Shown here one piece after another: positions 5,983 through 61,432 of a stretch of 64,000 nucleotides of DNA (position 1 is its first letter; each line of letters starts with the position of its first letter). The translations under genes were made by a program, and so were the position numbers. Below the pieces are notes generated by a model that saw nothing but the letters and a program-made list of their open reading frames with translations, did no database searches and was not told the origin of the DNA. This DNA is from an uncultured virus (IMG/VR IMGVR_UViG_3300030524_000003) (taxonomy: Duplodnaviria; Heunggongvirae; Uroviricota; Caudoviricetes): IMG/VR virus record IMGVR_UViG_3300030524_000003; one strand, written 5' to 3'.

Positions 5983-7845
5983 CTACTGTGATACCGCTCT
6001 TCCGGTGAGTCCTACAGGCCCTAAGATTGATGAGGTTACGCCGAGAAATTGCGCCGCGCCGGCCGAGGTTGGGTTCACTCTCGCCTTGCCAAAGTAGTCG
6101 GTTACGATCCCCGAGATAAGCGGAGATGACGCTCTGGCCGGCGAACTCGAGCTTAGGTTGAAGTTGAAAGCGTCCCCAAAACTGTCGCCTACGTTCGTCG
6201 TGGGGGGAGCCTCACCCACCAGGAGCGGGTCGACGCACTGGTCCGTGCCAGCGCAGGTGTAGCCGAAATAGTTGTAGATTGTGTTATTGCTCTGCTCTGT
6301 CGCGGTTAGCGTATTCCAGACCGTCGGCGTGTGGACTGAGCCGGTGTTCGTATTTAGGTATCCAACCATTACATTGTTGTCGAGGTCGAAGATGCAGCTC
6401 GTGCAGGTGCCGGTGCCCTGAATTTGGAAGTCGATCTGCACCCCGGTATAGGTGTACATAAAACTGTTTTGTATCTTGATGGTCTCATTTGAGCCGCCAC
6501 CCAGCCAGTTGACGCCAACCGTGTCGCCAGCCGCTCGGCAGAGGTCCGTCGTTGGGTACGTGAATCCGGCCGGCAACCCCGTGATCGTAGCCGCGGCGCG
6601 GCGGCAATTCCCGAGCGAGACGCTGTTGATAATCGAGGCAGACTGACCGCCCGATTTGAACGTGCCGCCGAAGTTTCCCCAGCAGATCGAAGCGGTGAAC
6701 GTCACCGATCCCGGCTGCTGGTTGTGGCCAACATCGTGACAGTCCTGCGCGTTGAAAGCGCCGGTAAAGTTTGTCACCGTAAAGGTTCCGAAGCTCGAAC
6801 CGGGAGTCGCCACGCCGTCGCCGTCGCCACCGATACTCTGCGACGAGACAAGATCAACCGGGATCGCTGTGACAAAGGGCCATTTTTGGTTATAGCCATT
6901 GAAGTCTACCGTAACGTTGGTCTCTACAATCTGAGCGCCAGCCGGGAGCGGATCGGTTCCGTCGTCGAAGTTAATTCCAGCCTCGATATTGTAAGAGGCT
7001 CGAACGTTGTTCAGCTTTACGAGCCCCGTCGCACTGATGGGCCCAATGGTTCCAGAGTCCTGCATACCTGAAATCCAGACGTCTTGGATGTTGCAGCCGT
7101 ATGTTCCCGTACAGGATGTCGAACTGAAGCGGATCCCCTCTGAAGCGTAATTCGAGAGCGGCGGCGCGTCCGATGGCGTCTGGCAAAACGGCACCGTGGT
7201 CACCGAGCCGGTGTAGTGGATAATGCAGTCGCCGTGCGTGGTGATGTGAATGCACTCGACATCCACATTTGTAGTTCCACTCAAGTCGATTACAGTGTTG
7301 GCCCCGAAATCGCCATACATCTCAAACATCTTCGTTGGGTCGGGCACGAGGGTCATGTAAAGTCCCCCAGGGATCAACGCCATGGTCGAGCAGTTGCCGT
7401 GATTCGCACCCCAGATGTGCGTAGGATTCGCTGTTGTTCCTGCTGGCGGTGGAGGTGCCCCACAACTGCTGCCGACGCCCTGGCACCATGTAAAACCAGC
7501 GCCACACCCAGCGCCAGAGCAAGGTCCGCCGAAGTCCCACCCAATACGGTTTGGAGGCCCAGTCGAAGCCGCCACGAGTCCTGAGACTGCAGCGATCGAG
7601 GCCGCCGACTCCAGGATGACGGTGTCGCCACCCGCAATGATCCACGCAATTGTTCCTGCCTGATTATCCCAGAGCCACCGCGCATCCTTGAAGCCACATG
7701 GCTGGCCTGTGCCTGTGCCGGAGTAAGCTGCGTCGGTCGTCCCGGTGCATTGCGATCGCGTTCCGCCGTCTGCGCGAACATACCAGGTTGCAGCATTCAG
7801 CATCGGGCAGAACAAGAGTAGGGCGAGCCACCTGAAACTCTTCAT
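5983..7845 (-). CDS. Secreted right-handed beta-helix (pectin-lyase-fold) protein, spike/depolymerase-like
   Basis: Signal peptide MKSFRWLALLLFCPMLNA; TWYVRADG start; Asn/Gly-rich coil repeats; FNLSSSSPA...DYFG.AR ending. Confidence 0.7.
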   Translation of the reverse strand: MKSFRWLALLLFCPMLNAATWYVRADGGTRSQCTGTTDAAYSGTGTGQPCGFKDARWLWDNQAGTIAWIIAGGDTVILESAASIAAVSGLVAASTGPPNRIGWDFGGPCSGAGCGAGFTWCQGVGSSCGAPPPPAGTTANPTHIWGANHGNCSTMALIPGGLYMTLVPDPTKMFEMYGDFGANTVIDLSGTTNVDVECIHITTHGDCIIHYTGSVTTVPFCQTPSDAPPLSNYASEGIRFSSTSCTGTYGCNIQDVWISGMQDSGTIGPISATGLVKLNNVRASYNIEAGINFDDGTDPLPAGAQIVETNVTVDFNGYNQKWPFVTAIPVDLVSSQSIGGDGDGVATPGSSFGTFTVTNFTGAFNAQDCHDVGHNQQPGSVTFTASICWGNFGGTFKSGGQSASIINSVSLGNCRRAAATITGLPAGFTYPTTDLCRAAGDTVGVNWLGGGSNETIKIQNSFMYTYTGVQIDFQIQGTGTCTSCIFDLDNNVMVGYLNTNTGSVHTPTVWNTLTATEQSNNTIYNYFGYTCAGTDQCVDPLLVGEAPPTTNVGDSFGDAFNFNLSSSSPARASSPLISGIVTDYFGKARVNPTSAGAAQFLGVTSSILGPVGLTGRAVSQ

Positions 7846-7852
7846 GGTTCTC

Positions 7853-8206: not shown

Positions 8207-8207
8207 G

Positions 8208-10691
8208 TTAGTAGTTGAATCCAATAGTACAAGACCCTAGACCGGCACTCGCTACCGGAGTTATCGCTGCGGTGATGATTCCGTCCGCTCCGTAGCTGAA
8301 CGGCAGAGCGCCCGTCGCAACGACCGTGGTTCCGGCTGTCGTTGTCCCGTAGATCAAGGTAATACCCATGTTGGTCCTGGTCGCACCCGGAGCCGCAGCG
8401 TAAAAGAAGTTCACCGTTCCATCAGCCGCGCCGACGCCTTGGCTAATACACCGCATCGTGAGGTTCGAGATAGAACCACCCGTGTGCGGGAGCATAAAGC
8501 CTGCGCCGGTAGACGGAGCAGTGGCGCATGCTGGGCCACCACCGAAGTTGAGGAATCCGCCCGTTACTGTTGTGGAGATCGCTCCGGTGCAGTAGCCAGA
8601 CTCCCAGCGTGCTGTCGCCGCGCCAGTAGAGCCCGCCACTACGTTGCCGTTAGTATCCGTGCCTAGCAACGGCTGGTTGAGCAGGTTCGGAAAGAAGAGG
8701 TTTCCCACGCCGAGATTCACGGCATAGTCACGGTTCATATTCGTTCCCATGTTCGTGCACGTCTGGTCGTTGCCGTAGACGGAGACCAGCGCTGGCCAAC
8801 CTGACGCGCCTGGAGCCACAGGCCCGGCACCCGCTACAGTGAACTCCTGATAGTCAGGTGATGCCGCGTTTCCAGGGCATAGCTGGTTGTTTGCTGCGAT
8901 GTTGGCGGCGTACGCCGTCGTTGGGAATTGCCAGATAACTCCGCCTGGGAGGTGTTGCCCGCCCACCTGAGTTACCGCGCTCGTGTTGGTGAAGCTGATC
9001 CCCTTGGCCGTCGAGGTATTGTCGATCTTGAAGACGATGCTGGCGATCGTGTCGGCCTCAGTACCCTGATAAGAACCGCCACCTTGAATCTCGATACAGT
9101 TTTGGACCAGGATGCAGTGGATGTGAGTGTAGACCGTGTTGGCTCCAAAGGCCCATGATCCAGTGATACCGGATGCAGCCTCGAGGTGCGTGACGGTCGA
9201 GTCGCTCATGTCAAGTTTTACGCCGTAGGTGACTTGGACCTGCGGGATAACGAAGATGTCCGGAGCCGCGCTACAAGTGCCACCGCTAATTACAGGCACC
9301 GTCGCCACGGCTAAAGTGCTAAAGGTCGGCGTCCCCAGCACCGGTAGAACAGAGCATAACGAGTGTGGGTCGTTCACCCCCGCCTTAGCCACCGCCTGCT
9401 GGCCAGTGCTATAGCTGCCGCCCGCGCCCACGGTAATGCTTGCCACGGACGTGCCCGACATTACGGCGGTCAGGGTAGCGAAAGTAGTTGGGTTGATGCC
9501 GTATGGCGGCTGAATGCTCAGCGTGTCGATGTCGACATCTTCAGCGAAGACCGAGGCGCTGTGATTACCAATCTGGACGTAGTGGTCGAGTCCGGAGGTC
9601 GCTGTCGGCAGAACGTTCTGGCAGGCAATATGCGAAATCTGTCCACCCGCAGCGACGCCAGCCAGATAGTCAATGCACGAACCAGCGTTATTATTGGCAT
9701 CAAAGGTAATATCGCGCAGGATGAAGTACGCCCCCGTGGTGCCCAACTTTGTAATCATCGGCGAGGTCGGAATCGAGCAGGTCTGCCGAATGAACGTAGC
9801 ACTCATCCCGGCACCGTAAATGTCCACACCCCAAAAGCCACCCGTCGGCTGAGACCACTCATTGCACTTTGTATATCCATTGAGTGCGCCAAACATGAGT
9901 GCGGTTGTATTGCTGGTGCTGTTCGAGAGATTGAGCGCCCCGAGCCAGGCGCAGTCAGCCTGGACTGTGCCTCCGGTGCAGGTTCCACCAAAGCCATCAG
10001 CCCAGATGCGGTGCGCCATATAGTTTGGGTTGAAGTAGGTTCCAGACGATTGCGTCATGTTCTGCGTGCTTGCCGACGCGAGTAGTACCGATCCGCCACC
10101 GCCCGTGATTGAAGCGCATCCGGTGGCATTCCAGTTTATGTCGACGCCCGTAGGCGCCATGCCGGTCGCGCACGATGTTCCAGCCGCCGCCGCCGCCGTG
10201 GCTGTCGCCGCGTTTCCCGATATAGAATTTGTCAGCGTTCCGGCGCCAGCAATATAACTCGCCGTTGGAGTCGGGAGTTGGCTGATGATAAGCGTGCCGT
10301 CGATCTGCGAGAAGTTGTAGTCGCCATTCTCTGCGATGACAGCGCCCGCACGCCCGAAGACCGTAGCCACCCCTCCAGCCGGAGTGCTGCACGCGCCATT
10401 GAATGCCAGGTAGCCCGATGTACATCCAGACCACAACGCGACGATATCAGACGCCACACCCACGCGAGTCGTCAGGGTGCCCGTACGGAAGACTATCCCA
10501 TTCGTACCCGGAAGCAGGCTGTTGAATGTCGTATTTAACGTAATGAAGTTGTTGTTGAGGAGAGTGCCCCAGCTAGGCGTGCCCTGTGTGGGGGTATTCA
10601 AGTTGAGCGGCCCGCCAGTCGTCTGAGCCGAAACGAACCCAGCCAGCATCGCCATTGCGAACAGAATTCCGAGTTGAACAACCCTCTTCAT
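8208..10691 (-). CDS. Tail fibre/spike-like protein with a Sec signal peptide
   Basis: MKRVVQLGILFAMAMLAGFVSA-Q; VATVFGRAGAV..ENGDY fibre repeat; IYGAGMSATFI/ITFDAN beta-helix motif. Confidence 0.7.
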   Translation of the reverse strand: MKRVVQLGILFAMAMLAGFVSAQTTGGPLNLNTPTQGTPSWGTLLNNNFITLNTTFNSLLPGTNGIVFRTGTLTTRVGVASDIVALWSGCTSGYLAFNGACSTPAGGVATVFGRAGAVIAENGDYNFSQIDGTLIISQLPTPTASYIAGAGTLTNSISGNAATATAAAAAGTSCATGMAPTGVDINWNATGCASITGGGGSVLLASASTQNMTQSSGTYFNPNYMAHRIWADGFGGTCTGGTVQADCAWLGALNLSNSTSNTTALMFGALNGYTKCNEWSQPTGGFWGVDIYGAGMSATFIRQTCSIPTSPMITKLGTTGAYFILRDITFDANNNAGSCIDYLAGVAAGGQISHIACQNVLPTATSGLDHYVQIGNHSASVFAEDVDIDTLSIQPPYGINPTTFATLTAVMSGTSVASITVGAGGSYSTGQQAVAKAGVNDPHSLCSVLPVLGTPTFSTLAVATVPVISGGTCSAAPDIFVIPQVQVTYGVKLDMSDSTVTHLEAASGITGSWAFGANTVYTHIHCILVQNCIEIQGGGSYQGTEADTIASIVFKIDNTSTAKGISFTNTSAVTQVGGQHLPGGVIWQFPTTAYAANIAANNQLCPGNAASPDYQEFTVAGAGPVAPGASGWPALVSVYGNDQTCTNMGTNMNRDYAVNLGVGNLFFPNLLNQPLLGTDTNGNVVAGSTGAATARWESGYCTGAISTTVTGGFLNFGGGPACATAPSTGAGFMLPHTGGSISNLTMRCISQGVGAADGTVNFFYAAAPGATRTNMGITLIYGTTTAGTTVVATGALPFSYGADGIITAAITPVASAGLGSCTIGFNY

Positions 10692-10700
10692 GGCAGGCTC

Positions 10701-13700
10701 CTAATTTGCTGAGCAAACGAAATCGTAGGTCATCGAAGCGGTTGCTACATGTGTGAGCGTGATCGAATTGGTAGCCTTCGCCGAAATATAGCTTGTCGCA
10801 ATGTTAGTGGCCGCGCCCGCGTTAGTTGCAGCCATCGAGCAGTGTCCGCCTGACGTCATACCCGTAATCGTGATGGTGTCGGAAGTTGCCGCCGTGGTGA
10901 CCACCGAGCCCACCAGAATGCCAGCCGCAGGGCAGTTCGTGCCATTAGCAAGACATACCTGCTGGCTGTTGATCGTGCTCGAAGCATCCAGCGCCGTTGG
11001 CCCCCCGGTAAGAGTGAAGCTATTTAGGTTCTGCGTGAACGTGCTTTGAGCCGATGTTGTCTGATTTGTAATCTGCTGAAAGCAGGTGTTGAGTGCGCAC
11101 TTGCTTTCCTCAAAGTAGTTCTGTCCGCTTACAGGTCCACCCTGCTGAAGATCCGTTGTCCCCAGCCCAAGAGTCCAAACGCTATCGGCAGAGCCGCTAG
11201 CGGCGTTGTTCTCAATCGTCACGGTCGTCGCGGACTGCTGAATGATCGAGAACCCGTTCGTTGCGGTTCCGCCGCCAATAACTGATTGCCACAAATCTTG
11301 GCCGGGAATTACGCGCTGCTCATACCCGCCCATCGCAGAATCGAACGTCCAGTCCCACAGGAAAGCTCCGAGATACTGCTGGTTCTCGCAGTTCGCATAC
11401 GCTCCGCAACCATGCATCGAGAAAAGTTGAGCGTTCGATACGGGAGACCCGTCATCTCGAATCCAGAACTGAAACAGTCCACCATCACCTTCGAGCGAGA
11501 TGATAGTTCCGTTTACATTGCGCGTTCCGCCTCCACCTGCAAGCCACGACTGCGGAATATTGCCAAGCCCGTACTGCATGAAGGTCATGCCATCGGGCGG
11601 AACTCCCACAACAACCCAGGCGTCGTTGACGAAGCGGTCTGAAGCGGAGGCTGGAGTCTGGAAGCCGACCAGCGTGTTGTGGGTGAAGAGGCCGACTTCG
11701 CCACCCGGCTGCGCCTCGATCGCGTCGTTAGTTGTAATGGTGTAGTTATTTGCTTCAGTCACCACTCCGGTCTGCGCGAACGTTGTAGGATTCTCGGCCT
11801 GGACGATCACTGGCGCGGGCATCATCTGCACCGCATTGGCTGGCAGGCCATTCTGCGAGATAAGAGCGATCGGGTTGCAGCCTGTGGTCGACCCGCCCGA
11901 CCCGGTGTTCGCCCAGGTGAGGGTGGTGGCTCCCTGTGTGATCGGCCCAAAGGTTCCGTTGTAGCTCGAGTCCGAGCATCCCGAGACAAGGATGTTGTCG
12001 CCGTTGACGGGGATAAAGTTGTCGCCAGTCGTGTTCAGTGTAACCACATTCGCCGATCGAGTCAGCGTTGGCGCGGGGATTGGACCCGAGGGATAAACTG
12101 CACCGTTCTGAATCGAGTCCCAGCCACCAGAAGCGATAACTAGCGAGTAGTCGATTACGTGCGAACTCGGAACACCAATAACCTTCGCCATGTAGCGCAC
12201 CGGGCACGGAGCCAGCCCTGTCGGAGTTGTCGGGCAGTCCGCAGTGGTTGGTACATAGCCAAAGGTTTGATTGGCCAGCAACTCCAAGCCTTTACATGCG
12301 TTTGGCCCCTGGGTGACGATGCCCGTCTTTGGTGTTCCCGAGATACTAAGGTTGTACGAGTGTCGCAGCGCCAGCACTACCGTCTGAGTGATATTCGGCG
12401 AAGTCCCAGAGGGTGAGCCAGCCGATACCACCTCAGCCTCTTCGTTGTACTGCGAGTCGTTCACGCAGGCTGTCGGGAAGGTTGAATTTTTGACAATCGC
12501 CGCGGTCAGGTTAGTCAGGTTGATCGTTTCGTTTGTCGTCGCGCCGATATACTGCAGCGGTGTATTGATCGTCTCGACAAACGAGCCAAACGTGTCGGTC
12601 GAGAGCGTCTCAAGCACTGTCGCCTGGCCTGGATTCGATGCACCACCCACGTAAGGATTCACGATCGTGGTCATGTGCAGAACCGCGCCAGCCTGAAACG
12701 GCAGGGTTAGGTAGTTGCCCTCGCCGGGAAGCGTGCCCGAGATGTTCTGCAGCGGAAGGTTGGTCGCCCCCTGGCCGGGATTCGCTGTCGCATTGAACAC
12801 CGCAGGGAAGGTCGCCTGGGTGTATTGCGTGCGGGTAACCTCGTGGCACTCGTCCGAAGGCACCTTGCATGATCCCGAGAAGATTCCAGCGAGATTCATG
12901 ATCTGCTTATCGCCGTCGCCGTAACTGAAGAGGTTGATACTGAGGCCAGATCCGATGCCCGAAGCCTGAGTAACCATAAAGAGGTTCGCAAGCGCATGGA
13001 CCGTCTGGTCGCCGTCAAAGTTTTCCTCATTCTTTCCACAGCAGTGAATCACCAGATAGGTCTCGGCGTAGCTCCACTGTCCACCCGCGCCAGACTGCTG
13101 CGGCGTGTTGTCCTGCAGGAACATGTCGTAAACGTTGGGGTAATTCGGTGTTGGGTTGTAGTACACCGACCCAATGGACCCTGGACGGCGATCCTGGAGA
13201 TAGGTATTGGCTCCAATGGCCGGCGGAAGTTGCTCGATTCCGTTGGTGCCGAACGGCGTTCTCCAGTAAGCTGCGGTTTCGTATGAGTACGTGACGGTGC
13301 CTGAAGCTACCGACCACGGAGTCGTCAAGGTCGCGTGGGTCGTGTCGGTGACCGAGGCGATATTCTGACACGTCCCCCCAGAGATACAAATTGGAAAGCC
13401 CACGTTACCGGGAAGGAAGTCCGTACCCGTGCCAACGATTGCCGTCGATCCATTGGTGACCGTCACGGTTCCGGGGCCCTGAGACGCCGGCCACTCTATG
13501 CCGGGGTAGTTCGGGTCGGCAGAGCCTACCGTCGAGCCAGCCTGAAGCTCGGCAACGATGCCCGTGTTGGAGTTTGTGGTCGGCTGGTTGAGAAATGCCG
13601 ACGGCATCGCGTTGGTCGACTTGTCGATGAAGTCGCCATTTGCATTGAGAAGAGAGGCTCCGCCGCCGAAGGTGCTTGCATCCTGCTGAAACTGGGTGCT

Positions 13701-14126: not shown

Positions 14127-14355
14127 CGAAGATCCGTTCATCCGAGGTGTCCCCCAACTGCCCTTCCGTAGATGAAACCGGCCCGCCGCAAGGTCCCGCA
14201 CACATACCCCCCTGACGTGCCCAGAGAACTCCCTTTCGCCGGCGGATCTCCGCTCGTCCAGCCGGGTTGGAAAGGCAGGTCTCGTGTCCATCGTTATGTT
14301 TCCTCGTCGACGTCTGTTGCTTCGGTCTCACGAACCTCTTGGCTGCTGCTCGCAC
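14032..14355 (-). CDS. Small HNH-like/Zn-finger protein overlapping both neighbours
   Basis: RRRK.VLWARQGGMCAGPCGG ... LWCQNC Cys pattern resembling phage HNH proteins. Confidence 0.45.
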   Translation of the reverse strand: MRAAAKRFVRPKQQTSTRKHNDGHETCLSNPAGRAEIRRRKGVLWARQGGMCAGPCGGPVSSTEGQLGDTSDERIFDESNQPRNSLWCQNCRRNSRRNNPASADVEC

Positions 14356-16318: not shown

Positions 16319-16889
16319 AGCGTCTCTCCTTGAAGAATTTCATGGGCCCTGGAACATATTGAAGGTCTGCCTCCGGCCATCTTGCCACACACTCGGCAAA
16401 GCGGATGACGCGGATGCGGATATAGCTCGCTGCGGCTTCTCCATGCGTAGAGTGCAAGCATTCAATGCACTCGCTGATGACCCGCAGTAGCGGCATGTAC
16501 GTGTCGAGATTCGAAGGCACCACCTTGATCCCGTTAGGGTAAGCGTTTAGTATCTCGACGCAGTCCGTCAGGTCTTTGGGCACTTCGGTGAGCGCATTCC
16601 GCAAATAGCGTGATTGATTAAACCACGTCGACGGGTACGGAATGTGTCTTGACTCGCGGTTGAACATCATTGATCGAGCTTCGGTGGCCGCGTCGCGAAG
16701 GTAGAAGATTGCCTCCTCTTTCGTGCGCGGTTTTCCGTCGATCTCTCCAGCCACGATGCGGTCGAGCGCCATCTGGATCGAAGCCAGCGCGGTAGCGTGC
16801 TGCTTCTTTCTCGGGTAGGCCTTGTAAATCGTCTCGACTGCGGCGGCTGCCCATCCCTCGGGGGCTGGAAGCAGTTCGCCCTGGGTCAT
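16227..16889 (-). CDS. Replication initiator/replisome-organiser-like protein with two tandem YP(R/N)...P.P.TW domains
   Basis: IYKAYPRKK...IPYPSTWFNQSRY and ILNAYPNG...YVPGPMKFFKERRY. Confidence 0.65.
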   Translation of the reverse strand: MTQGELLPAPEGWAAAAVETIYKAYPRKKQHATALASIQMALDRIVAGEIDGKPRTKEEAIFYLRDAATEARSMMFNRESRHIPYPSTWFNQSRYLRNALTEVPKDLTDCVEILNAYPNGIKVVPSNLDTYMPLLRVISECIECLHSTHGEAAASYIRIRVIRFAECVARWPEADLQYVPGPMKFFKERRYDNDPRTWERQPQNGYRSERDQLHRVVGSR

Positions 16890-17167
16890 AGCTTCTCTAC
16901 CGCTTCCAACTTCTCCATCACGACGGCGACAATGGTTTCGAGGTTGACTGCCTTTTCAGCCTCTTCATCGTCGATCTCGATGTCGAACTCTGTCTCCACT
17001 TGCATGATGAGTTCGATACAGTCGAGGGAATCGCCGCCAAGGTCGTTGACTAGGTGCCCTTTTGGGGTCACCTCGTCTTCGTCGACCAGCAGTTCGTCGG
17101 CGATCAGGGTGCGGATTTTCTCTGTCACTTCCTCTTGTTTGGTCAGTATTTTCTTCGGCATGTTCAT
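16886..17167 (-). CDS. acpP: Acyl carrier protein
   Basis: DLGGDSLDCIELIMQVETEFDIEIDDEEAEK, the phosphopantetheine-attachment motif; acidic 93-aa protein. Confidence 0.9.
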   Translation of the reverse strand: MNMPKKILTKQEEVTEKIRTLIADELLVDEDEVTPKGHLVNDLGGDSLDCIELIMQVETEFDIEIDDEEAEKAVNLETIVAVVMEKLEAVEKL

Positions 17168-27398: not shown

Positions 27399-27419
27399 GG
27401 TGGGTTTCTCCTGTGCATG

Positions 27420-27448
27420 ATGCTTGCATGAAGGTGGTGAGGTGTCAA
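27420..27448 (-). promoter_or_regulatory. Promoter with a perfect TTGACA -35; the operator (27420-27429) covers the -10 position
   Basis: TTGACA at 27443-27448 (minus strand), motif about 17 nt downstream, then AGGAG RBS; the -10 match is weak. Confidence 0.55.
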
Positions 27449-27509
27449 GAAGAAAGCCTCCCCGGAGGGAGACTTGTCTTCGGGCAAACCGATAAGCCCG
27501 GCTTGCCGA

Positions 27510-27956: not shown

Positions 27957-27975
27957 GGCTGGAATTGTACTCCCC

Positions 27976-28012
27976 AAAAGAAAGGGTGCCTCGACATTTC
28001 TGAGGCACCCTT
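27976..28012 (-). terminator. Intrinsic terminator
   Basis: AAGGGTGCCTC-N9-GAGGCACCCTT followed by TCTTTT on the minus strand. Confidence 0.7.
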
Positions 28013-39200: not shown

Positions 39201-42200
39201 ATTCGCTGCCGTGAGACTCGTCCTTGGTGACATCTCTTCCTTCGAGTTGATTCAGCCTTGCGGACTGGTCTTGTGCGCGGGTCATCAGTTCGACCGCATC
39301 CGTGTTGTAGCTCGCTAGATTCCAGATTTCACCAGCCGAACGCATGATGACGAAGTCCATGCCCACGCGGCCAAGCTTGTCCTTGATCGCCGCGCTGGTT
39401 CGACCGAGCACCTGCGGATTCGAGACGGCGATTCCCGCTAGGGTGTTTTCAATGAGCGCCTTCGCGGGCTCCGTCAGGTCACCATCCTCGGTGAAGTAGG
39501 CTGAGCGCTTCTTTGGATCAACCAGACCGGCATCGCGAAGGATGTCAGCAAGGTCGGCAGAACGCGCACGCATCGCCGTCCGCAAGCTGGAGTCTCCGGA
39601 TACCGACCGAAACACGTTCGCCATCCGCTCGACGACGGATGGAGTCAGTAGCCGTGAAAGAGCCGCCGATTGCTCGGTGGAGCTCATCCCCTGGCTGGGG
39701 TCGCGATTCATCTCGATGCCATACCGCGCCAGCGTGGCAGGGTCGGTCACCGTGCGGTCCATCACCCGGACAAGCACGGGGTTGCGCATCTCGAAGATGG
39801 AAGCGGGGTCGATACCAAACGCCTGTGCGCGGTCAAGGATCGAGGCTCGAACCTCTTCGTACCGGCCACGCTTCTGCGCCAGCTTCATGCTCTGCGTGCG
39901 TCCGTTTCCCGACAGCACCGTGCCGTCAGGCATAACGATCGGTGGCCCATCCACCGGCAACACGGAGTTGCTGAGGATCTGGTCAGCGTCAAGCGCGCCA
40001 GCACGCTCCTCTACAGCCGCCTGGAGTTCCGGTTGATCTTGGTAGTTGCGCGGTTGCGCTTCCTGCGGGTAGCGCGGGTCTGGTGTGTAATTTTCAGTAC
40101 TACGATGAGAAGTAATAAGATTATTAGAATCGACAACCGCATAGTGGACTGGCACCTCTTCGCCAGAGTTCAACCTGACACGAGTTTCTCGGCCTAGAAT
40201 GGCCGGCATTTTTGGATTCGTCTCGCGCTCCGTACGTGGTTTGACCACCTCAGTCGCCGCGACAATCTCATCCTCTTTGCGCTGGATAAAGTCAGCCGTG
40301 TCACGCAGCGCCTCGGCTTCAGCCTTCTGCTCCGGTAGTGCCTCGGGACCACCCAGACGGTCGGCGGCCCGGTTGATGACCTGCTTCTGGTCTTCAAAGT
40401 GGACTACCTCACGCGCAGCTCGTTCAGTGCCAGATTCAATGTCGGTACGCATCCGCGAGATGAGGTCTTCCCGATAAGCATCGAGCACCTGACGCTCAGC
40501 CGCAGCACGGGTCTGCCGCATCTGGCTCATAAACTCGTTCATGTCCGGAGAGCGCTGGCTCTCGGGTATCTTCCGAATGGCGCGCTGCACGTCAAAGATG
40601 TCGCGTGACCCGCCAACATCCTGAAGGTTGATGCGCTCTGCCAAACGGGTCAGGCCTTTCGCCTGGTTGGTTAGGGCCTCCCCTGCTCCAGTCTCCGCCG
40701 ATGTTGCATTGGTAATCGTGTTGCGAATCTGCTGCACATGGTCTGCGCGAGCTTCACGCACTGCCTGCCCGGCAAGCTCCTGATCGACCTGTGCGCGGGT
40801 CGAATCGCGATAGGCCATCAGCGTGTCGACCTGCTGCCTGTCGCGTAAAGACGCCTCGTAGTTGGCAACGTCGATATGCTCACCGCGAGAGAGACGGTCA
40901 GCAATCTCTGGCGTGGTAAACGCTTTGGCGCGTGCCGGATCTTCATTGAGGAAGCCAGCCAGCGCGGACACCTGATCGCTCTTTTCGATGGCGTCGAAGC
41001 TCTTGCCGAAGTTTTTCTCCGAGTACTCCGAAAGTGCCCGGTAGATGTCGGGTGCGGCCTTCATCGAAGCTGCAATGTTTGAGTGCTCGAGGATGACTCG
41101 TGCCAAGCCAGCAGTCTCATCCGCTCCCGGCGCCAGGGGTTCGCCTGTACCTTCGTTGCGGTTCATCCAGCGCGTGACGGCTGGCCTCGAAGCTTCGACC
41201 ATATCGGCGTGACGGCGATACGCATCGTAGGCTGGCGTCGCTTTGAAGGCGTCCCACTTCTCCGGCTGCTCGCGCTCAAACTTCGATGCAACCTCGCGCT
41301 GGCGATCAAGCGGCAAGCTCGAGAATGAGGCCCCAGCGTTCTCTTCGGCATACTCCTGCACTGGCCGCTCCAGTTCGGAAGCAGTCTGAATTTCGACCGA
41401 TCCTGGAGCGGTGCGCTTGTCCACCACTTTGACGCCACCCTCCATCGGCTCGGGACTGGGAGCGTGGACGGGTTCCGTTTCCTTTTCGGTCGTCTTGACC
41501 AATCCTCGATCACCACGGGTGTTGCGTCGCTGATCGTTGACACCGAATCCGCGCTCTTCAGCGGCCGGGGTAATCTCGTCGGCCTTAGCAGCCTGATACT
41601 GTGTGCGTCGCTGGGCTTCTTCGTTGGCTTTGACTTTAGCCTCAGCCGCCGCCTGCGCCTGCTTGTACTGCTCCGCCGCCCGCTGACGCTGTAATTCTTG
41701 GCCTAGAACAGTTTTGGCCGCCTGCAATCTGGCGGAGTTGGCTTTTGCTCGGTCGTTCATCCACTCGATATCAGCCTGAGCGTCGCCGCGAGTCTGCGAC
41801 TTGCGAATCTTGTCCGTCTCCTGGTCCACGCGCTTGCGAAACCCTGGACTTTGATCCTCTACTGAGGAGTAGAGTGTATGCGCCTTCTCGGGGTCGGTAA
41901 GCTGTTTAAATGGCTTCTTATAGAGGTCCTTCGCTTTATCGTTGAGTCGAGCGGTATTCTCGCCGCCCTCGGCGATCTTGCCACCAACGTGCGGAACGAC
42001 GATCATGGCGACGTTTGCCGCCATCTCGCCCCAAGCTTCGTTTTCTCCGGCATCGTCCCCACGCTGACGAGCTTCGTGGATCTGGTGCGCGGTATCGACG
42101 ATACCCTCGCCCATAGTCGGCATCATCGCCAAACCAACGGCGTGCATCGCGGACGCAACATACTCGCCACCCTTGACCACCGCAGCGCCCGGAGCGGCCA

Positions 42201-42657: not shown

Positions 42658-42685
42658 GTACGCCAATCATAATCGGAAGCTTGTA

Positions 42686-44359
42686 CTACAGCGCTTGAAA
42701 TTCTCCGTTGACCGCCCATCCGATCAAATGCTGCTTGTCGTCGTACACGGGGGCAGATGCGCCCTTCGGCGGCTTGTGCCCCTGCACCTCCGGCAGCCCG
42801 CCGTCTTCGTGCTTGGCGGTCTCCGTTTTGGGGTTCTCCGGGGGCTTAGCATCGGTATGAGCGTAAGGCTTCATGCGGCCAAGCACTACCTTACGATCCT
42901 CCGGTGATATCCCCCCGCCCACCTTGGGGTCGTTGAGAACATCTTTGATCTGCTGCTGCAGATCCATCTCAAACTTTTGAGCCTGTTTCTTGTCGAGGTT
43001 TCCCGAGTATTTCCCGTTTTTATCCGGTTGTCCAAGGTATTTACCGTACGACCGCATCCCGTCGCCGTCACGCGGAACGAAGTTGGCGAGCTTGTCGCTG
43101 AAGTCTTTGTCGTCGCGGTACTGAGGAAGCGACTGCAGGCGCTCGATCGCCGAACTGAGCACCTTGTTGTCAAACTGAACTGGCTCCTGAGTCGCGCTGT
43201 ACGACTGACCCTCGTCATCCGAGATCGACTTCTTGATCGCCATCTTATCAGCTTCACGATCAAGCTTGTCGTCATCCCAACCGGGGTTATGTTCTTTCAG
43301 ATACGAGCGTGCCTGACCATACGCTTTTTCGTAGCGATTAGATCCGGTGCCGCTACCGCCGCGGCCACCGCCGCTCCTCCCCTTAGCTGCGTACTCCTTC
43401 TGTGGTCCGCGCAGTTGCTTGTACGTTCCATCCCCATTGTCCATGAGGATTTCACCCTCGCGGGTGACCGTCAGCTTTGTCTTCGGCCCGGTAGGGACCT
43501 TGTTGAGTTCGAGGATCTGTTTGTCTTGGTCGGTGAGCTTGTAGTTTGGGTCTTTTTCCAAACGCCCAAAAACATCATCGAGAGCGCGCTTCGCCTCGTC
43601 CCCTGGCTTTTCCGCCACAGGCTTCGCGACGGGCGCGATACGCTCTTCGAGAGACGTGAGCCGCGTGTTCTGATCTGCCGTGCGCTGGCCTGCCGGAATC
43701 TGCAAAAGCTTGTCACGCTCGGCCACCGCCTGTTGATGGCTGAGGTCGTTCTGATCTTTGAGTGTCTTCGCCTGTACCGAGGGATCGGCTGCGCGCTGCT
43801 GCGCCTGCCGCTGTCCCATCGCAATCTGCCCGTAAACTGGTGGGCCAGCCTTCTGACTGAGTTCGAATAATGCCTGCGTCTTGACGTGCGGGTCAGGACT
43901 ATTCAGCCGGTTCATCAGGGGCTCCTGAGCGGCCTGCTGCGCCTTCTTTCCACCCTTACCCTTTTGCTCTTGGACAATGAACGGACGCCGGAAGTCTTGC
44001 AACGCTCCCCAGCTACCATCCACCGCATTCTTGGCCGAGACGTACTCGGGACTCTTTGGGTCAACTCCGGCCTGACTAAGTTGGAAGAGCCGCGTCGCAT
44101 CCTGATTGTAGGACGCCTGGAGGTTGTCGTCCTTCTTTTTGAACTTCATCACGTCGGCGGCTTGCTTGTACGCACGACCGGCCATGACGCCGCGCAGCAG
44201 CCCGTCCGCAATGGTTGCGATCGCGCCCGAGTGCTTTACCGCTCCATTGGCTTCTGGAGCCTGTGTCGGGATAGGAGATGGCATCGCCACCGGAGACACG
44301 TCCGGCAACACTGGAGCCTGATAGGGGGTTGAGGTGGTTGGATCATAAGCTTGCGGCAC
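42686..44359 (-). CDS. Internal virion / DNA-ejection protein
   Basis: Hydrophilic helical 557-aa protein between the pilot-like gene and the giant gene. Confidence 0.6.
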   Translation of the reverse strand: MPQAYDPTTSTPYQAPVLPDVSPVAMPSPIPTQAPEANGAVKHSGAIATIADGLLRGVMAGRAYKQAADVMKFKKKDDNLQASYNQDATRLFQLSQAGVDPKSPEYVSAKNAVDGSWGALQDFRRPFIVQEQKGKGGKKAQQAAQEPLMNRLNSPDPHVKTQALFELSQKAGPPVYGQIAMGQRQAQQRAADPSVQAKTLKDQNDLSHQQAVAERDKLLQIPAGQRTADQNTRLTSLEERIAPVAKPVAEKPGDEAKRALDDVFGRLEKDPNYKLTDQDKQILELNKVPTGPKTKLTVTREGEILMDNGDGTYKQLRGPQKEYAAKGRSGGGRGGSGTGSNRYEKAYGQARSYLKEHNPGWDDDKLDREADKMAIKKSISDDEGQSYSATQEPVQFDNKVLSSAIERLQSLPQYRDDKDFSDKLANFVPRDGDGMRSYGKYLGQPDKNGKYSGNLDKKQAQKFEMDLQQQIKDVLNDPKVGGGISPEDRKVVLGRMKPYAHTDAKPPENPKTETAKHEDGGLPEVQGHKPPKGASAPVYDDKQHLIGWAVNGEFQAL

Positions 44360-44368: not shown

Positions 44369-44527
44369 CTAGAAAGTCGGCGTGGGATTCCATGCCGAGA
44401 AATCAATAGTAGCTGGATTATATGGTGCGCTACTAAGTCCCATCGGATTACCCGCTCCAAAGTTGAGGCCAAGAGGGTCGGCGCCCGCGTTAGGATTGGA
44501 CGGAGGTGGAGCGTTAGGGGGTGTCAT
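44369..44527 (-). CDS. 52-aa Pro/Asn-rich hypothetical peptide
   Basis: ATGA-coupled to the upstream gene and fills the gap exactly. Confidence 0.4.
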   Translation of the reverse strand: MTPPNAPPPSNPNAGADPLGLNFGAGNPMGLSSAPYNPATIDFSAWNPTPTF

Positions 44528-45054
44528 ATAAACGCTGCGCCCACTGTGGCAGCATCCGTGCCCAGCGACGTCAGCGCACCGAGTTGGGCACCTTTTTGCT
44601 GGATCTGCTGCTGACCCAAAGCTCCAAGACCCGAGTTTGCACTGTTGTAGCCCGAGATGCCGGTTCCGGCTGCAGCGGTGGATTCTCCCACCCCTTGACC
44701 GGATAGCTGCGCGAGTGCGTTGAAGGAATTCAGATAGCTTCCAGAAGCGGCCTTGCCTACCTCTGCGCCCTGATTGACGTCAACCTGCTCGAGTGCAAGA
44801 TTTTTTTCACCGCCAGCCGGGCCTGTGCGCAGGATGTTAGCCTTCGCCTGGTCCGATGCCGTTTGAATCTGCTGCGTTGCTGGAGCGATCGCCGTGGCGA
44901 TCTTGCCTGGGTCACCTGTCGCGATTGTGGAGTAGAAATTTTCTGCAGACTGGAATCCGGGAAACGCCGCCTGGTAAAGCTGATCTGCGTTACCGGCCTG
45001 CTGCTGAGCGATTGCCGTTAGAGCGTTAGAGTTGGATAGTTCGCCCGCTTGCAC
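44524..45054 (-). CDS. DNA-ejection (pilot-like) protein, Ala/Gly/Gln-rich; true start possibly ACG at 45084
   Basis: Composition and position after the GNAT gene, as in P22/T7-type ejection modules. Confidence 0.65.
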   Translation of the reverse strand: MQAGELSNSNALTAIAQQQAGNADQLYQAAFPGFQSAENFYSTIATGDPGKIATAIAPATQQIQTASDQAKANILRTGPAGGEKNLALEQVDVNQGAEVGKAASGSYLNSFNALAQLSGQGVGESTAAAGTGISGYNSANSGLGALGQQQIQQKGAQLGALTSLGTDAATVGAAFI

Positions 45055-53811: not shown

Positions 53812-54492
53812 TTACACCGACGCCAGTTCTTCGGTCTCCACCTTTGCAGGCTCCGGCTTCATCCCGTACTTTGCCATGGTCTCAACCTTCTCTGTAACGC
53901 CCATCGTATCCCAGATTCTCCACGCAAAACCCTTCGGCTTCTTCAGTGTGGTGAGGTCGATGGATTTCGGATCTACAACGACTACGGCCTTGGAGTTCAT
54001 CTCCTCGATCGCGAGTTGAAGACCAGATTTTTCAACCAGTCCCGGCCCGGCCGTAATTGTGATCTCGCCGCCAAAGACCTCGCCAACGGTCGACTCAGGG
54101 GTGAATCCTTGCGACAGACCGATTACGTTAATTTCTACGCCGAGAATTTCCGGTTCCGCCGTGGCGCCGGCAGTGATCTCCTTGAAGAGCTTCTCCGCGT
54201 CGTCGTCATCCTCTTCGACCACGGCAACAGTCTCAACTACAGGTGCGTGCTCCTCGTCCCAATTGTCAGGCTTCCGAACGGAGAAGGTTCCGCTTCCGCC
54301 ACACTTGTCGCAGGTAGACTTCATATCGCCGGCCGCCGCTCCAGCTACCGGGACGGTTGTCTGGCCGGTGCCTGAGCATGCGAGGCATACTGCCACAAAA
54401 CCTCGGGAGAAACAGTTCTTGCAGCCCATGGGTACGTCTGGATTGGTGCAGTGGCATCTCGATACAACTCCGTGAAAATCGGTTAGTTTCAT
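53812..54492 (-). CDS. DnaJ-type CxxCxGxG zinc-finger protein with an acidic linker
   Basis: CKNCFSRG, CLACSGTG, CDKCGGSG. Confidence 0.65.
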   Translation of the reverse strand: MKLTDFHGVVSRCHCTNPDVPMGCKNCFSRGFVAVCLACSGTGQTTVPVAGAAAGDMKSTCDKCGGSGTFSVRKPDNWDEEHAPVVETVAVVEEDDDDAEKLFKEITAGATAEPEILGVEINVIGLSQGFTPESTVGEVFGGEITITAGPGLVEKSGLQLAIEEMNSKAVVVVDPKSIDLTTLKKPKGFAWRIWDTMGVTEKVETMAKYGMKPEPAKVETEELASV

Positions 54493-54497
54493 CCTCG

Positions 54498-55184
54498 TCA
54501 CCTTCGTTTGATTGGATTGACCTGCATGGGTGCCCCGGTAGCGCGAGACCAAATGTAAATATCGCGGCGGTCCTGAATCTGCGTCATGCGCGCCGCCTGG
54601 TCTAAAAACGATTGGAGCATTTTATTGCTCTCGCTGAATTCATTTCCAGCCTCCTTGAACCGTGCGTAGTGCGCGGCATACTCCTGAAGCGCCGAAAAGA
54701 ATTGGTCCTCAAACGGCACCGTCTGCGCTCCATCATAAGGCCAAGTCTCGGTCGAAGGGTACTGAATTCCAGTGAGGAGCACTGTTTGGCCCGTGTAGAC
54801 CGAGGGATGCACCACAAACATATTGAAGCCGAGCGGAGCCCAATGCTCGATGACATCGCCCATATCCTGCTCCCAGTCCGATCCCCATGAGTTTTGGAGA
54901 TAGTCGAGGTCTTCAAGCGTATACTTCCACGCCTCCGAAGCCGCACCTTGAACGTTGGTGATGCAGAGCATCCCTTTGGGGACGAGTTGCCACGGGGTAT
55001 TCGGCACGATCGAGAATGGCTGGCTGACGATCTGCGTTGGTCGTCCCACCAGAAGCATCAGTTCGTTGCATGCCTCGACCAGGCCGGGGTAAATTTCGGT
55101 CGCGAGCTTCCAGAATACGCCTGGCCCCACGGGCTCCTCTAAACGATTCTGAACGTCGGCCGCGAGTGAAGCGATGGTTGCCAT
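54498..55184 (-). CDS. Head-tail adaptor-like protein
   Basis: TIASLAADVQNRLEE...W...EI...L.EA; VPFEDQFFSALQEYAAHYARFKE. Confidence 0.65.
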   Translation of the reverse strand: MATIASLAADVQNRLEEPVGPGVFWKLATEIYPGLVEACNELMLLVGRPTQIVSQPFSIVPNTPWQLVPKGMLCITNVQGAASEAWKYTLEDLDYLQNSWGSDWEQDMGDVIEHWAPLGFNMFVVHPSVYTGQTVLLTGIQYPSTETWPYDGAQTVPFEDQFFSALQEYAAHYARFKEAGNEFSESNKMLQSFLDQAARMTQIQDRRDIYIWSRATGAPMQVNPIKRR

Positions 55185-59291: not shown

Positions 59292-61432
59292 ACGCCAAAT
59301 CCCGCCCCAAATGCGCTGTAGTGAGTTGAGTCAAGACCTTCGATGCAAAGCGCATCACCTTTTGCACCGCCCGAAACCAGCGTTCCCGTCGTCACCGTTC
59401 CGTTAGTTCCCCCATAAGCGATAAAGACGCTGGTGGTTGACGTGATCGTTAGAACACCAGTCTGACCGGGATAATTTGTAAAGCAATACGTCTTTCCTAA
59501 AACGGGAGCATCGACGACCCAATTGAAAGCCCCCCCACTATTATTGACGTAAACGCCAGATACTCCCGTCAGCGTTAGCGGTGATCCGCTCGTCGATACT
59601 ATTGTCGGCGTAATGTTCGTGTAGGCTGTCGTCGCTAGTTTGGTTGAGTTGTCGCCAGCAGTCTGAGTGGTTGCGGTCACGCCGTTGGGTAGAGCTGGCG
59701 TTCCCGAAAGGTTGGCCGCAGTTCCAGAGATGCTGCCCGAAGGGATGACGTAATCCGTACCTGCCGTGGCCGCCGAGAGGCTTCCAGCGGCATCCTTTAG
59801 TAGTCCGGTCAAAGATGATGGTCCCTGAGTTGTCCCGAGATTGCCCGTCAGTCCAGAGAAGGCTGTAACCGGAGTGATCCACGAACATACGGACTGCGTG
59901 ACTCCATTGACCGTACCGGGAACCGCAAACGCCATCACCTGCCCCGCTGTCGGGCTGGCTGCACACATCTGCTGAAAGTAGGTTTGCGTGCCAGTAGTGG
60001 TGCCAATCCAGCCGTTGTACGCGGTCGGCAAAAGGGTAGTTGGAACCGTACCCGATCCCACGCCAAGAGCAAATGCTCCCTGCGTGCTGCCCGTCGACGC
60101 AAACCCGCCAGCCGAAGCGATACCGCCGGCACCACCGTAGGTCAGCGTGTTTGCTGTCGTCTGGCTGTCGTCGAGGTTGGCGTCCGAAGTTGGAGCTGCA
60201 CCAGCCCCACCACCAAGAAGAAGGTGCCCTGCCGCAAGTACGGCCGATGAGGTCAGCACGGTCGCGCTCGAGAAATATGGGATGCCGCCGGAGTTGGTCG
60301 TGCCAGCCACGGTCTGCGGGAAACTGATGGAGCCGCCAGTAATCGAGTTGCAGCCAAAACCGGTGCCCGTCGTCCAGATAAGGGCACTACTCCCAGCCGT
60401 CGAGCAGGACGGCATAGGCAGCGCAGATGGAGACCCGCTGGCGATCGCGCCTACAACCGTGTTAGCCGCCTGCGATGCTAGGCCGCTCAAGCTTAGGGCT
60501 GCACTGAGGCTGCCGGCGCTCCCTGACGTGTTCGCAGCGTTGTTCGGGATGTCGGATGAGACAAGAGCACGGAAGCTATAAGCCCCCGTCCCGCCAGTGG
60601 CAGGCCCCGCAAGCACCGAATTTTGAACCGCGGTCGAAGCCGTGAATGCCAAGGCCGGCGCGGTCGTCGGATTGGCCCCCAGAGCTGCCGTGAAGAGTGG
60701 GGATAGGTTACCAGTGGTGAAACTCGTTAGGCCGCCCGTGACCGTCGATAGCGCCCATGCTGTACCCGTCCAGTTCAAGTAGCCGGTCGTTAGAGACGGC
60801 AAAAGGTGATTGATTAGTCCAACGACCTCGGTCGCCCCACCGGTCGAGCCGCTGATCGCGTCTCCGGACAACTGGTTGAAGGTTCCGGTTCCACCGCAAG
60901 ATCCCCACGCAGTCGTAAAGCATCGGAAGGTGTTGTCAGTGACCCGGAAGTACTGGCTCCCGCCTACGCCTGGGACTTCAGTGTCGTTGTACGCGCCAGC
61001 CAAACTGTTGACAGCGATGCGCGGCGCCACGATGACTGCGTTGATTTGGGTTGTGATGCTCTGAGACGCCCCTGTCACCGCCAGGGGAGTCGTTGAGTAG
61101 CAGGGCGTGTTCGCCATCTGAGGACAGACTTTGAGGGACCAGCCGCTTGCCGGAGGGTTCGTCGCTGGAGTCGTTCCGGTGGTCGACGTCACCACTTGCG
61201 AAAACGACCCGGTTCCATCGAGGGTGCCGGAGAAGGTGAGCGTAAATGCCTGGCCCGCGACTACGGGGACACCGCCAGCCGGGTTGTAGACAAAGGTGAG
61301 CACGTAAGTGCCGTTCGCCCACGCCTGACTATCGGAGTCGGTTACGGTAGCAGAGAGAGTCGTTGTCGCCGCGAAGACTGCAGGGGTAATCGCTAGGATT
61401 ATGAACCAAAACAGTTTTCGAAGCGCCTTCAT
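59276..61432 (-). CDS. Tail fibre protein with a Sec signal peptide
   Basis: MKALRKLFWFIILAITPAVFA-A; NSVLAGP..G....FRALV..DIP and TATTQTAGDNSTKLATTAY fibre motifs. Confidence 0.75.
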   Translation of the reverse strand: MKALRKLFWFIILAITPAVFAATTTLSATVTDSDSQAWANGTYVLTFVYNPAGGVPVVAGQAFTLTFSGTLDGTGSFSQVVTSTTGTTPATNPPASGWSLKVCPQMANTPCYSTTPLAVTGASQSITTQINAVIVAPRIAVNSLAGAYNDTEVPGVGGSQYFRVTDNTFRCFTTAWGSCGGTGTFNQLSGDAISGSTGGATEVVGLINHLLPSLTTGYLNWTGTAWALSTVTGGLTSFTTGNLSPLFTAALGANPTTAPALAFTASTAVQNSVLAGPATGGTGAYSFRALVSSDIPNNAANTSGSAGSLSAALSLSGLASQAANTVVGAIASGSPSALPMPSCSTAGSSALIWTTGTGFGCNSITGGSISFPQTVAGTTNSGGIPYFSSATVLTSSAVLAAGHLLLGGGAGAAPTSDANLDDSQTTANTLTYGGAGGIASAGGFASTGSTQGAFALGVGSGTVPTTLLPTAYNGWIGTTTGTQTYFQQMCAASPTAGQVMAFAVPGTVNGVTQSVCSWITPVTAFSGLTGNLGTTQGPSSLTGLLKDAAGSLSAATAGTDYVIPSGSISGTAANLSGTPALPNGVTATTQTAGDNSTKLATTAYTNITPTIVSTSGSPLTLTGVSGVYVNNSGGAFNWVVDAPVLGKTYCFTNYPGQTGVLTITSTTSVFIAYGGTNGTVTTGTLVSGGAKGDALCIEGLDSTHYSAFGAGFGVWINH

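Follow-up and report, generated by a model that had tools for sequence, protein, structure and literature searches.

Six large signal-bearing proteins encoded with the tail and lysis genes of an uncultured podovirus-like phage: candidate exported fibres and beta-helix depolymerases

We analyzed a 64,000-nucleotide window (bases 3746–67745 of the 68,449-base IMG/VR virus record IMGVR_UViG_3300030524_000003, Caudoviricetes), in which a first-pass annotation had pointed to six large open reading frames (ORFs) for fibre- or spike-like proteins with Sec signal peptides. The six ORFs, here called P1, P2, P3, SP3, SP2 and SP1, all lie on the minus strand where that annotation had placed them, and each opens with a signal peptide of the n-h-c, AxA type (Table 1). 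Judged from their sequences and those of their homologues, the six proteins are probably real Sec substrates that fold outside the cytoplasm. We see about an even chance that they are late-made exported depolymerases and fibres acting in the envelope or after lysis, and not virion parts assembled in the cytoplasm.

Signal peptides were called with a purpose-written heuristic (n-, h- and c-regions plus the −3/−1 positions) and not with a trained predictor. The heuristic flagged five of the six ORFs, and SP2 failed solely the rule of a net-positive n-region, because an aspartate and a lysine cancel there (MDKP..., net charge 0). In the other five, the n-region had a net charge of +2 to +3, and an uncharged h-region of 8–16 residues, within approximately the first 30 residues, had a mean Kyte-Doolittle hydropathy of 2.4–3.1. 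The h-region of SP2 is plain in its translation and was outside the hydropathy scoring since the charge rule had failed. Small residues at −3 and −1 (AxA type) followed the h-region in all six ORFs. As a control, 6 of 68 neighbouring host proteins were flagged (three membrane proteins and three false calls), so that signals in six of six ORFs are far beyond chance.

Good Shine-Dalgarno (SD) sites precede the starts of P1, P2 and SP1, the start of SP3 overlaps the upstream stop (ATGA), and that of SP2 overlaps the upstream gene by 16 nt. True starts downstream of the hydrophobic segments, which the first-pass annotation had named as grounds for doubt, were rejected: an SD site accompanied none of the 12 in-frame internal ATG, GTG or TTG codons near the cleavage sites (SP3 has no such codon), and the long starts were backed by an SD site or a stop-start overlap. 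The start of P3 was ambiguous, with a weak SD site at the ATG at 14126 and a good one at an upstream ATG at 14291, from which the protein would be 1196 amino acids (aa) long with 55 extra residues before the hydrophobic segment. The 165 bases in front of the P3 signal (14127–14291, minus strand) contain no stop in frame and come with a good SD site of their own, and four P3 homologues (P0216, P0214, P0240 and P0243) begin, by eye, with a look-alike extension (M-D/E-x-K-F/Y-V-S-P-T ... VCVRD..AG.F.LR); the N-terminal extensions stayed unaligned when long-form P3 was compared with P0216 by BLASTP. Such an extension could represent either a longer form of the protein or a leader, conserved in either case.

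Table 1. Features of the window. Positions count from the first base of the window; in the remarks, a slash marks the predicted cleavage site.
Feature	Coordinates	Strand	Remarks
P1, 620 aa	5983..7845	-	N-terminus MKSFRWLALLLFCPMLNA, then predicted cleavage with A at +1 (LNA/A); 20 mature Cys; probable right-handed beta-helix
P2, 827 aa	8208..10691	-	N-terminus MKRVVQLGILFAMAMLAGFVSA, Q at +1; predicted site VSA/Q; 20 mature Cys
P3, 1141 aa	10701..14126	-	N-terminus MRATSHAIRFGARTAAGILGVIILLLLTLSANA, Q at +1; long signal, predicted site ANA/Q; 22 mature Cys
SP3, 707 aa	55189..57312	-	N-terminus MRKFICFLLLSLPCAA, Q at +1; predicted site CAA/Q; 16 mature Cys; predicted right-handed beta-helix glycanase
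SP2, 660 aa	57309..59291	-	N-terminus MDKPLVLIILLALCLPARA, Q at +1; predicted site ARA/Q; 10 mature Cys
SP1, 718 aa	59276..61432	-	N-terminus MKALRKLFWFIILAITPAVFA, A at +1; predicted site VFA/A; 10 mature Cys in 5 local pairs
Endolysin	4495..4998	-	Pfam/PHROGs match; downstream of the P3-P2-P1 block
p322, fibre-like tail protein without signal, 322 aa	51647..52615	-	1 Cys; conserved in the clade; one segment in common with P3
SU10-type adaptor, 228 aa	54498..55184	-	SU10_adaptor match; starts 4 nt after the SP3 stop
Tail-module protein, 187 aa	61443..62006	-	0 Cys; directly upstream of SP1; kept in related phages
Adaptor-like protein	62693-63706		SU10_adaptor match in the N-terminal part
Small lipoprotein, 117 aa	7853..8206	-	Lipobox LGG/C; between P1 and P2
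Small exported protein, 130 aa	23510..23902	-	Predicted site AQA/T
Lipoprotein, 174 aa	26874..27398	-	Twin-arginine-like n-region RRLFLK; lipobox LTG/C
Small exported protein, 148 aa	27510..27956	-	Predicted site AFA/Q; 2 Cys
Exported protein, 308 aa	30254..31180	-	8 Cys; adjoins two glycosyltransferase genes

A bias to even cysteine numbers was reportedly used as a criterion for disulfide-bonded exported proteins by Dutton et al. in 2008. The mature parts of all six proteins have even cysteine counts (Table 1), and the residues are mostly paired locally, as in SP1 (103/111, 171/179, 343/361, 490/516 and 650/696); the signature was thus stronger than the paired cysteines that the first-pass annotation had seen in several of the proteins. 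Cysteine is nearly absent from the virion or structural proteins without a signal: those of 3124, 557 and 187 aa have none, the 337-aa and 322-aa proteins have a single one each, and the 1349-aa protein has 5.

The signals were also kept among homologues, the check that the first-pass annotation had proposed. In the SP1 family, 65 of 84 members had a signal at the annotated start; among the others, 12 showed one downstream of a longer called start (some 8 of these being convincing by eye), and 7 lacked one. Even and odd cysteine counts stood at 63:3 in the SP1-family rows with a signal and at 10:8 in those without a signal at the annotated start. Signals were present in 102 of the 120 SP3 matches listed (even:odd with signal, 67:35; Gln at +1 in 74 of the matches listed), in 103 of 150 members of the P3 family taken as 50% representatives (93:10), and in five of five P2 homologues, read by eye from their N-termini. 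Across aligned SP1-type N-domains, the cleavage site keeps its register while the signals vary freely in sequence, and the Cys103/Cys111 pair is jointly present or jointly absent in most rows. Even cysteine numbers also serve as a marker of disulfide-bonded exported proteins in PMC2823432. The export and oxidative folding in the periplasm that had been suggested for these proteins are supported by signals at real starts, kept in three families and accompanied by even, paired cysteines.

The homologue search with SP3 gave 262 matches. The 120 listed had 35–97% identity, mostly over approximately 97% of the length, on contigs of up to 2.2 Mb, and their source names include Candidatus Sulfotelmatobacter and Polyangia. 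An AlphaFold2 model built from a 99-row alignment had a predicted local distance difference test (pLDDT) score of 90.1 and formed a right-handed beta-helix. The top Foldseek matches were phage capsule depolymerases or tailspikes (7w1c, E = 4e-13; 9k4a, 4ru4, 4ru5, 8bke and 4y9v), followed by GH110, GH28, AlgE and RbmB; E-values against the phage depolymerases ranged from 4e-13 to 3e-10 with modest TM-scores (0.31–0.46). The Pfam family PF12708 matched SP3 weakly, at 21.8 bits against a cutoff of 27, and several homologues have a precomputed match to it. On its predicted structure, SP3 is a putative beta-helix glycanase.

Homologues of SP3 (E<=1e-20) were found in 9 of the 151 Acidobacteriaceae genomes sampled. 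In all five loci inspected, from these nine genomes, the homologue carried a signal and lay inside an exopolysaccharide (EPS) or O-antigen gene cluster, among genes for GT1, GT2 and GT4 glycosyltransferases, a Wzx-type flippase, Wzy_C, RmlC, GDP-mannose dehydratase, UDP-glucose dehydrogenase and acetyltransferases. The mature N-terminus of SP3, QxWSGIIDPSRAIDW, begins right at the cleavage site, and the bacterial homologues begin likewise; since their N-termini align with it from the first residue, no phage docking domain has been added. The simplest reading of these comparisons is that SP3 would be a host EPS-cluster glycanase captured by the phage, signal included. That SP3 represents a common core gene of the host was rejected, given its presence in just 9 of 151 genomes. 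At one Acidobacteriaceae locus (G004:C3:45821-47327; L123-L125), an SP3-like gene lies in pieces, one of the three with two internal TGA stops.

P1 had no sequence match in Pfam, PHROGs, NCBIfam or the PDB. Its ESM Atlas features matched Acidobacteriota clusters named 'right handed beta helix' at 0.98 (205/256 features), and P1 is probably a second beta-helix enzyme. The description of all six proteins as fibre- or spike-like was therefore too broad: it suits SP1, P2 and P3, it does not suit the bacterial-type beta-helix enzymes SP3 and, probably, P1, and SP2, for which the ESM Atlas gave weak leads only, was placed in neither class.

SP1, P2 and P3 are probably mosaic fibres, and probably trimeric. 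SP1 consists of the signal, a conserved beta-sandwich N-domain (residues 22 to ~140), a mosaic shaft and a tip; residues 1–180 are common to approximately 16 homologues, and a module at residues 360–420 occurs in up to 59, at varying positions. A model of the N-domain (residues 21–140, pLDDT mostly 74–95) showed a transthyretin- or carboxypeptidase-regulatory-like sandwich. VIA-align gave Z 7.0 to the Ur-lambda tail tip (9e7m_Ta) and Z 7.7 to a cyanophage neck fibre (8keg), and the transthyretin-like domains of many secreted proteins scored the same or higher (to Z 9.1), so the fold is generic; the list of folds includes secreted bacterial proteins and the SusC N-extension. P2 has a fibre motif, 'LNLNTP..W..LNNNF' (LNL..P..W..LN.NF type), directly after the signal, followed by VFGRAGAV..GDY, and a homologue (P0363) joins an SP1-type N-part to a P2-type C-part. 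In P3, a large central domain separates the N-domain from a C-terminal tip of approximately 100 aa, which also ends hundreds of other proteins.

The fibre motifs named in the first-pass annotation are indeed present (e.g. VFGRAGAV..GDY in P2; LAGP..FRALV..DIP and TQTAGDNSTKLATTAY in SP1). Its 'head-binding-like' motif IYSD..NP.TTD.RGNY returned two antibody-fragment (single-chain variable fragment, scFv) matches in a PDB sequence search, taken as chance. PDB sequence searches with all six ORFs likewise gave nothing meaningful, the scFv and MBP-fusion rows being taken as chance, and five of the six had no family in Pfam, PHROGs or NCBIfam, the weak PF12708 match of SP3 being the only one. BLASTP among the six proteins detected no mutual similarity, and one segment of P3 matched p322. 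An N-terminal docking module common to the six was thus rejected.

SP3, SP2 and SP1 lie between two genes with SU10_adaptor matches, as had been noted. The spacing to the tail genes consists of overlaps of 4 and 16 nt and gaps of 4–10 nt, and the six genes together take up about 14 kb, about a fifth, of the window. The closest relatives of the contig are other IMG/VR contigs, namely two near-identical ones, G001 and L006. In L006, the homologues of the flanking 187-aa protein and of the adaptor are 41% and 50% identical to those of the window, and the fibre in the SP1 slot bears a signal, shares just a 138-residue mid-shaft module with SP1 and has an unrelated N-module; a docking N-module conserved alongside the tail proteins was thus not found between these two phages. 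In G001, a complete 96.5-kb genome with terminal repeats and tail proteins 46–63% identical to those of the window, the slot between these tail genes is empty, and a 336-aa signal-bearing fibre is encoded elsewhere in the tail module. The signal-less p322 is conserved over its full length at 41% identity within the clade.

Relatives of the SP1 fibre modules were examined at 56 IMG/VR loci by a permissive scan of in-frame starts, in which the call for L016 is doubtful. A signal-like start was present at 30 loci and absent from 26. After truncated and duplicate ORFs were dropped, 21 signal-bearing ORFs held 1.45% cysteine (16 with even counts), and 15 signal-less fibre ORFs held 0.14%, seven of them having none. 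A PHROGs scan of 119 neighbours of 17 signal-bearing ORFs (L013 and L057 were left out, the target ORF not having been called) showed that these ORFs adjoin genes for tape measure, baseplate, tail tube, adaptor, neck, portal and terminase proteins in siphovirus-, myovirus- and podovirus-like contigs; some neighbours were themselves signal-bearing and cysteine-rich, and the signal-less neighbours were cysteine-free. An S74 fibre chaperone domain was present in some signal-bearing homologues (P0024 and P0075), and SP1 had no S74 match.

Two of these contigs show arrangements of their own. On the podovirus-like contig L011, a 272-aa protein without signal or cysteine, which has an SP1-type N-domain at its N-terminus (8695-9513, plus strand), is directly followed by a 903-aa signal-bearing fibre (9479-12190, plus strand), a natural pair for comparing folding routes. 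In a P2-like baseplate operon (L038:1182-5653), an insertion of two signal-bearing genes, for a fibre of 496 aa and a glycine-rich protein of 239 aa, separates a baseplate-wedge gene (PHROG 120) from a downstream gene with, by eye, a baseplate-J-like N-terminus.

In GTDB genomes, the SP1 fibre modules matched 48 loci, mostly in metagenome-assembled genomes of Acidobacteriaceae/Terriglobales and some in Bacteroidota. Because most of these loci are acidobacterial, the host of the phage is most likely an Acidobacteriaceae bacterium. In the Acidobacteriaceae genomes, the modules occur in proteins of approximately 1900–2000 aa with long signals (28 of the 48 loci by the heuristic), and three of seven such loci scanned had a signal-bearing beta-helix protein (811–858 aa) beside the giant protein, with Terminase_6C following in L062. 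At four loci (L062, L067, L097 and L070) we observed a recurrent layout of a dual-specificity phosphatase, a signal-bearing fibre of about 2000 aa (with BppL_N in L062) and a signal-bearing beta-helix protein of 811–1329 aa; a 514–681-aa protein follows in L062, L067 and L097 (Terminase_6C in L062), and a HipA-like kinase comes next in L067 and L097. This layout looks like a prophage family or phage-derived elements.

On the reading that we prefer, the six proteins would be made late from the transcription units of the tail and lysis genes, Sec would thread them into the periplasm, and signal peptidase I would cut them there before they fold with disulfide bonds. The target of SP3 and P1 would be polysaccharide of the host itself, cleaved in the periplasm or once lysis has released the enzymes, and the thinner capsule or matrix would let progeny escape, avoid trapping on debris and reach neighbouring cells, while SP1, P2 and P3 would bind envelope or matrix glycans as free or cell-bound proteins. 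Cleavage of the proteins, their final location, their substrates and the benefit to the phage are what we infer. The first-pass annotation had left the choice between fibres that fold in the periplasm and attach to particles at lysis and an adhesin or depolymerase coat on the infected cell. The evidence leans towards an exported depolymerase and adhesin set, since SP3, and probably P1, appears to be a secreted enzyme of bacterial type without a docking domain, the N-module of the L006 fibre is unrelated, the corresponding slot of G001 is empty and p322 is conserved. Several observations weigh against this reading. The six genes are co-transcribed with tail genes, and three of them occupy a slot that the related phage L006 also fills with a signal-bearing fibre. 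In other contigs, signal-bearing fibre ORFs stand at the usual positions of receptor-binding proteins, for example amid the baseplate genes of L038 or, in L009, behind those for the tape measure and distal tail. The N-domain of SP1 has the same generic fold as the N-domain of lambda Stf and neck fibres (Z 7.0–7.7), and both N-module types also occur at the N-terminus of signal-less, cysteine-free phage fibres (the 272-aa protein of L011, P0025 and P0046), so they could be virion-docking modules. A periplasmic enzyme cannot reach EPS beyond the outer membrane without a further secretion step or lysis. Finally, the cysteine parity of the SP3 family is just 67:35, and the binomial p-values for parity (1e-15, 0.002 and 5e-18) overstate independence because the homologues are related to one another.

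Some of these observations would be expected if the proteins were virion fibres that depend on export, folding with disulfides in the periplasm and binding to finished, fibreless particles when the holin opens the inner membrane or at lysis and thereby giving virions disulfide-stabilised receptor-binding proteins, a scenario that we regard as possible but on the unlikely side. The genes lie in tail or late modules both here and in the siphovirus-, myovirus- and podovirus-like contigs, the proteins share mosaic modules, including those at the N-terminus, with signal-less phage fibres, some signal-bearing homologues carry the S74 chaperone, the coding investment is large, and in Acidobacteriaceae loci of prophage-like appearance a terminase gene adjoins those for a giant fibre and a beta-helix protein, both with signals; tailspikes can attach late to P22 heads in vitro. 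Nevertheless, literature searches found no precedent for such fibres in tailed phages, SP3 lacks a docking domain specific to phages, related phages with conserved tail proteins have different N-modules, the six have no N-module in common by BLASTP, and the phage already possesses a conserved signal-less fibre-like protein, p322. Alternatively, the set could be cargo for lysogenic conversion or exclusion that remodels or masks surface glycans against superinfection, or provides adhesins, for a lysogen or an infected cell, together with the phage glycosyltransferases and small exported proteins; this we consider quite unlikely. The genome does encode GT-D and GT4 glycosyltransferases and five small exported proteins or lipoproteins, homologous genes occur in prophage-like loci of bacterial genomes, outer-membrane morons such as lambda lom lie among tail genes, and the MAT fibres of Bdellovibrio bacteriovorus are cell-surface adhesins in the passages that describe them (PMC10769870). 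The tight packing with the tail genes nevertheless leaves no room for promoters of their own, and no integrase or repressor was found by Pfam or PHROGs in the 68-kb contig, itself incomplete. That the hydrophobic N-termini are not export signals at all, being mis-called starts or buried helices of ordinary cytoplasmic fibres, is very improbable. The n-region of SP2 without net positive charge and the ambiguous start of P3 would fit such an explanation, but SD sites or stop-start overlaps back the long starts and no internal start has an SD site, the signal property is kept while the signal sequences diverge, the bias to even cysteine counts is confined to signal-bearing homologues, and signal-bearing fibres are tenfold richer in cysteine than signal-less ones.

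The contig is an incomplete fragment of a podovirus-like soil phage. It ends inside a homologue of the gene located next after that for the capsid in a related phage, and neither a portal nor a capsid gene was found in it. A protein identical to P2 is on record for 31 contigs, the longest of 97 kb. Tblastn against GenBank phages gave no match for SP1, P2, P3 or SP3 (P1 and SP2 were not among the queries), nor for two signal-bearing fibres of other contigs. Besides the endolysin, the Pfam and PHROGs matches in the window include DnaB, RecT, HNH, an exonuclease, peptide deformylase, two glycosyltransferases and a 3124-aa ddrB-ParB/helicase protein; no Rfam families or tRNAs were found in the window. 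The 3124-aa protein (33292-42666, ddrB-ParB plus helicase) forms a trio with proteins of 557 aa (42686-44359) and 176 aa (44524-45054), all on the minus strand and free of cysteine, and the same trio ends the tail module of G001; these may be ejected internal proteins. The tail module also encodes a protein with 8 cysteines and a DnaJ-type CXXCXGXG zinc-finger pattern (53812-54552, minus strand; 167 aa with an acidic tail in G001), which may be a folding helper supplied by the phage. The replication module includes a gene for an acyl carrier protein (16886-17167, minus strand), and a pentapeptide-repeat/DUF5758 protein is encoded at the left end of the contig outside the window (L110:31-789, plus strand).

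Smaller exported proteins and lipoproteins are encoded as well. The first-pass annotation had counted about eight; the class was borne out, and the heuristic found five clear ones (Table 1). A block of surface genes (26874-31716, minus strand) comprises a lipoprotein, two small exported proteins, the GT-D and GT4 glycosyltransferases, the 308-aa exported protein and then peptide deformylase. A deformylase in a phage with eleven predicted signal-bearing proteins may be no accident.

Searches of full-text articles turned up no description of tailed phages whose tail fibres have Sec signals, and the term 'signal peptide' is absent from the Tunturi virus paper on virus isolates of Acidobacteriota. 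According to passages of PMC6199706, phage target proteins of diversity-generating retroelements have no signal peptides, and the lack of a signal was used as a mark of phage origin. What appears to be new here is that predicted MAT-like exported fibres and EPS-cluster-type glycanases are carried in the tail and late operons of a phage. The fibres and depolymerases that tailed phages make are taken to be cytoplasmic and are seldom screened for export signals in annotation pipelines. At the 56 viral contig loci, about half of the fibre-like ORFs bear a signal and contain approximately tenfold more cysteine, mostly with even counts. If the proteins act as free enzymes and fibres, they would represent a phage strategy for dismantling or binding the host polysaccharide matrix from the envelope, with one enzyme captured from a host EPS cluster, and would offer a direct route to EPS-specific depolymerases for the poorly studied soil Acidobacteria. 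If they are on virions, the one-compartment view of tailed-phage assembly would be overturned, with assembly spanning two compartments. We regard it as rather unlikely that a broad and so far overlooked class of tailed phages, in Acidobacteriota- and Bacteroidota-like metagenomic contigs, docks Sec-routed, disulfide-stabilised receptor-binding fibres and depolymerases onto cytoplasmic particles between holin triggering and rupture of the outer membrane. On either reading, cysteine parity would be a cheap, sequence-only means of sorting phage fibre-like proteins by folding compartment.

Among known systems, the MAT fibres of B. bacteriovorus have, in the passages of PMC10769870 that describe them, a signal, a conserved beta-rich N-domain of ~130 aa, a mosaic phage-fibre-like shaft and swappable tips; some carry the S74 chaperone, and the tips contain disulfides. 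As far as those passages go, SP1 and its homologues share this architecture (signal, a conserved beta-rich N-domain directly after it, mosaic shaft and variable tip), as do P2 and P3; the match is one of architecture only. In the same account, MATs are chromosomal genes of a predatory bacterium and are shown on its own surface, whereas the fibres of the window are encoded in phage tail and late operons. EPS clusters commonly encode signal-bearing glycanases that cut the polymer of the cluster itself, such as AlgL, PslG, PelA and BcsZ (PMC8829089, PMC4928890 and PMC9075953). SP3 resembles the glycanases so described in that all five inspected homologues lie in such clusters and carry a signal, and differs from them in being phage-borne beside tail genes and in its beta-helix, unlike most of the examples named there. 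The SP3 model shares the right-handed beta-helix with the Klebsiella phage K1 lyase (7w1c), phiK64-1 S2-4 (9k4a) and LKA1 gp49 (4ru4). These phage tailspike and capsule depolymerases have an N-terminal particle-binding domain, are assembled on virions in the cytoplasm and, to our knowledge, have no signal peptide, whereas SP3 has a predicted signal peptide and no particle-binding domain. The lambdoid lom and bor, likewise Sec substrates encoded by phages, are outer-membrane morons located in tail regions, and are small and neither fibres nor enzymes. The g3p and g8p proteins of filamentous phages are signal-bearing virion proteins, of which g3p binds the receptor and gets to the particle by way of the membrane. 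Filamentous phages, which like the phage of the window encode Sec substrates, are assembled at the membrane, whereas the phage of the window is tailed.

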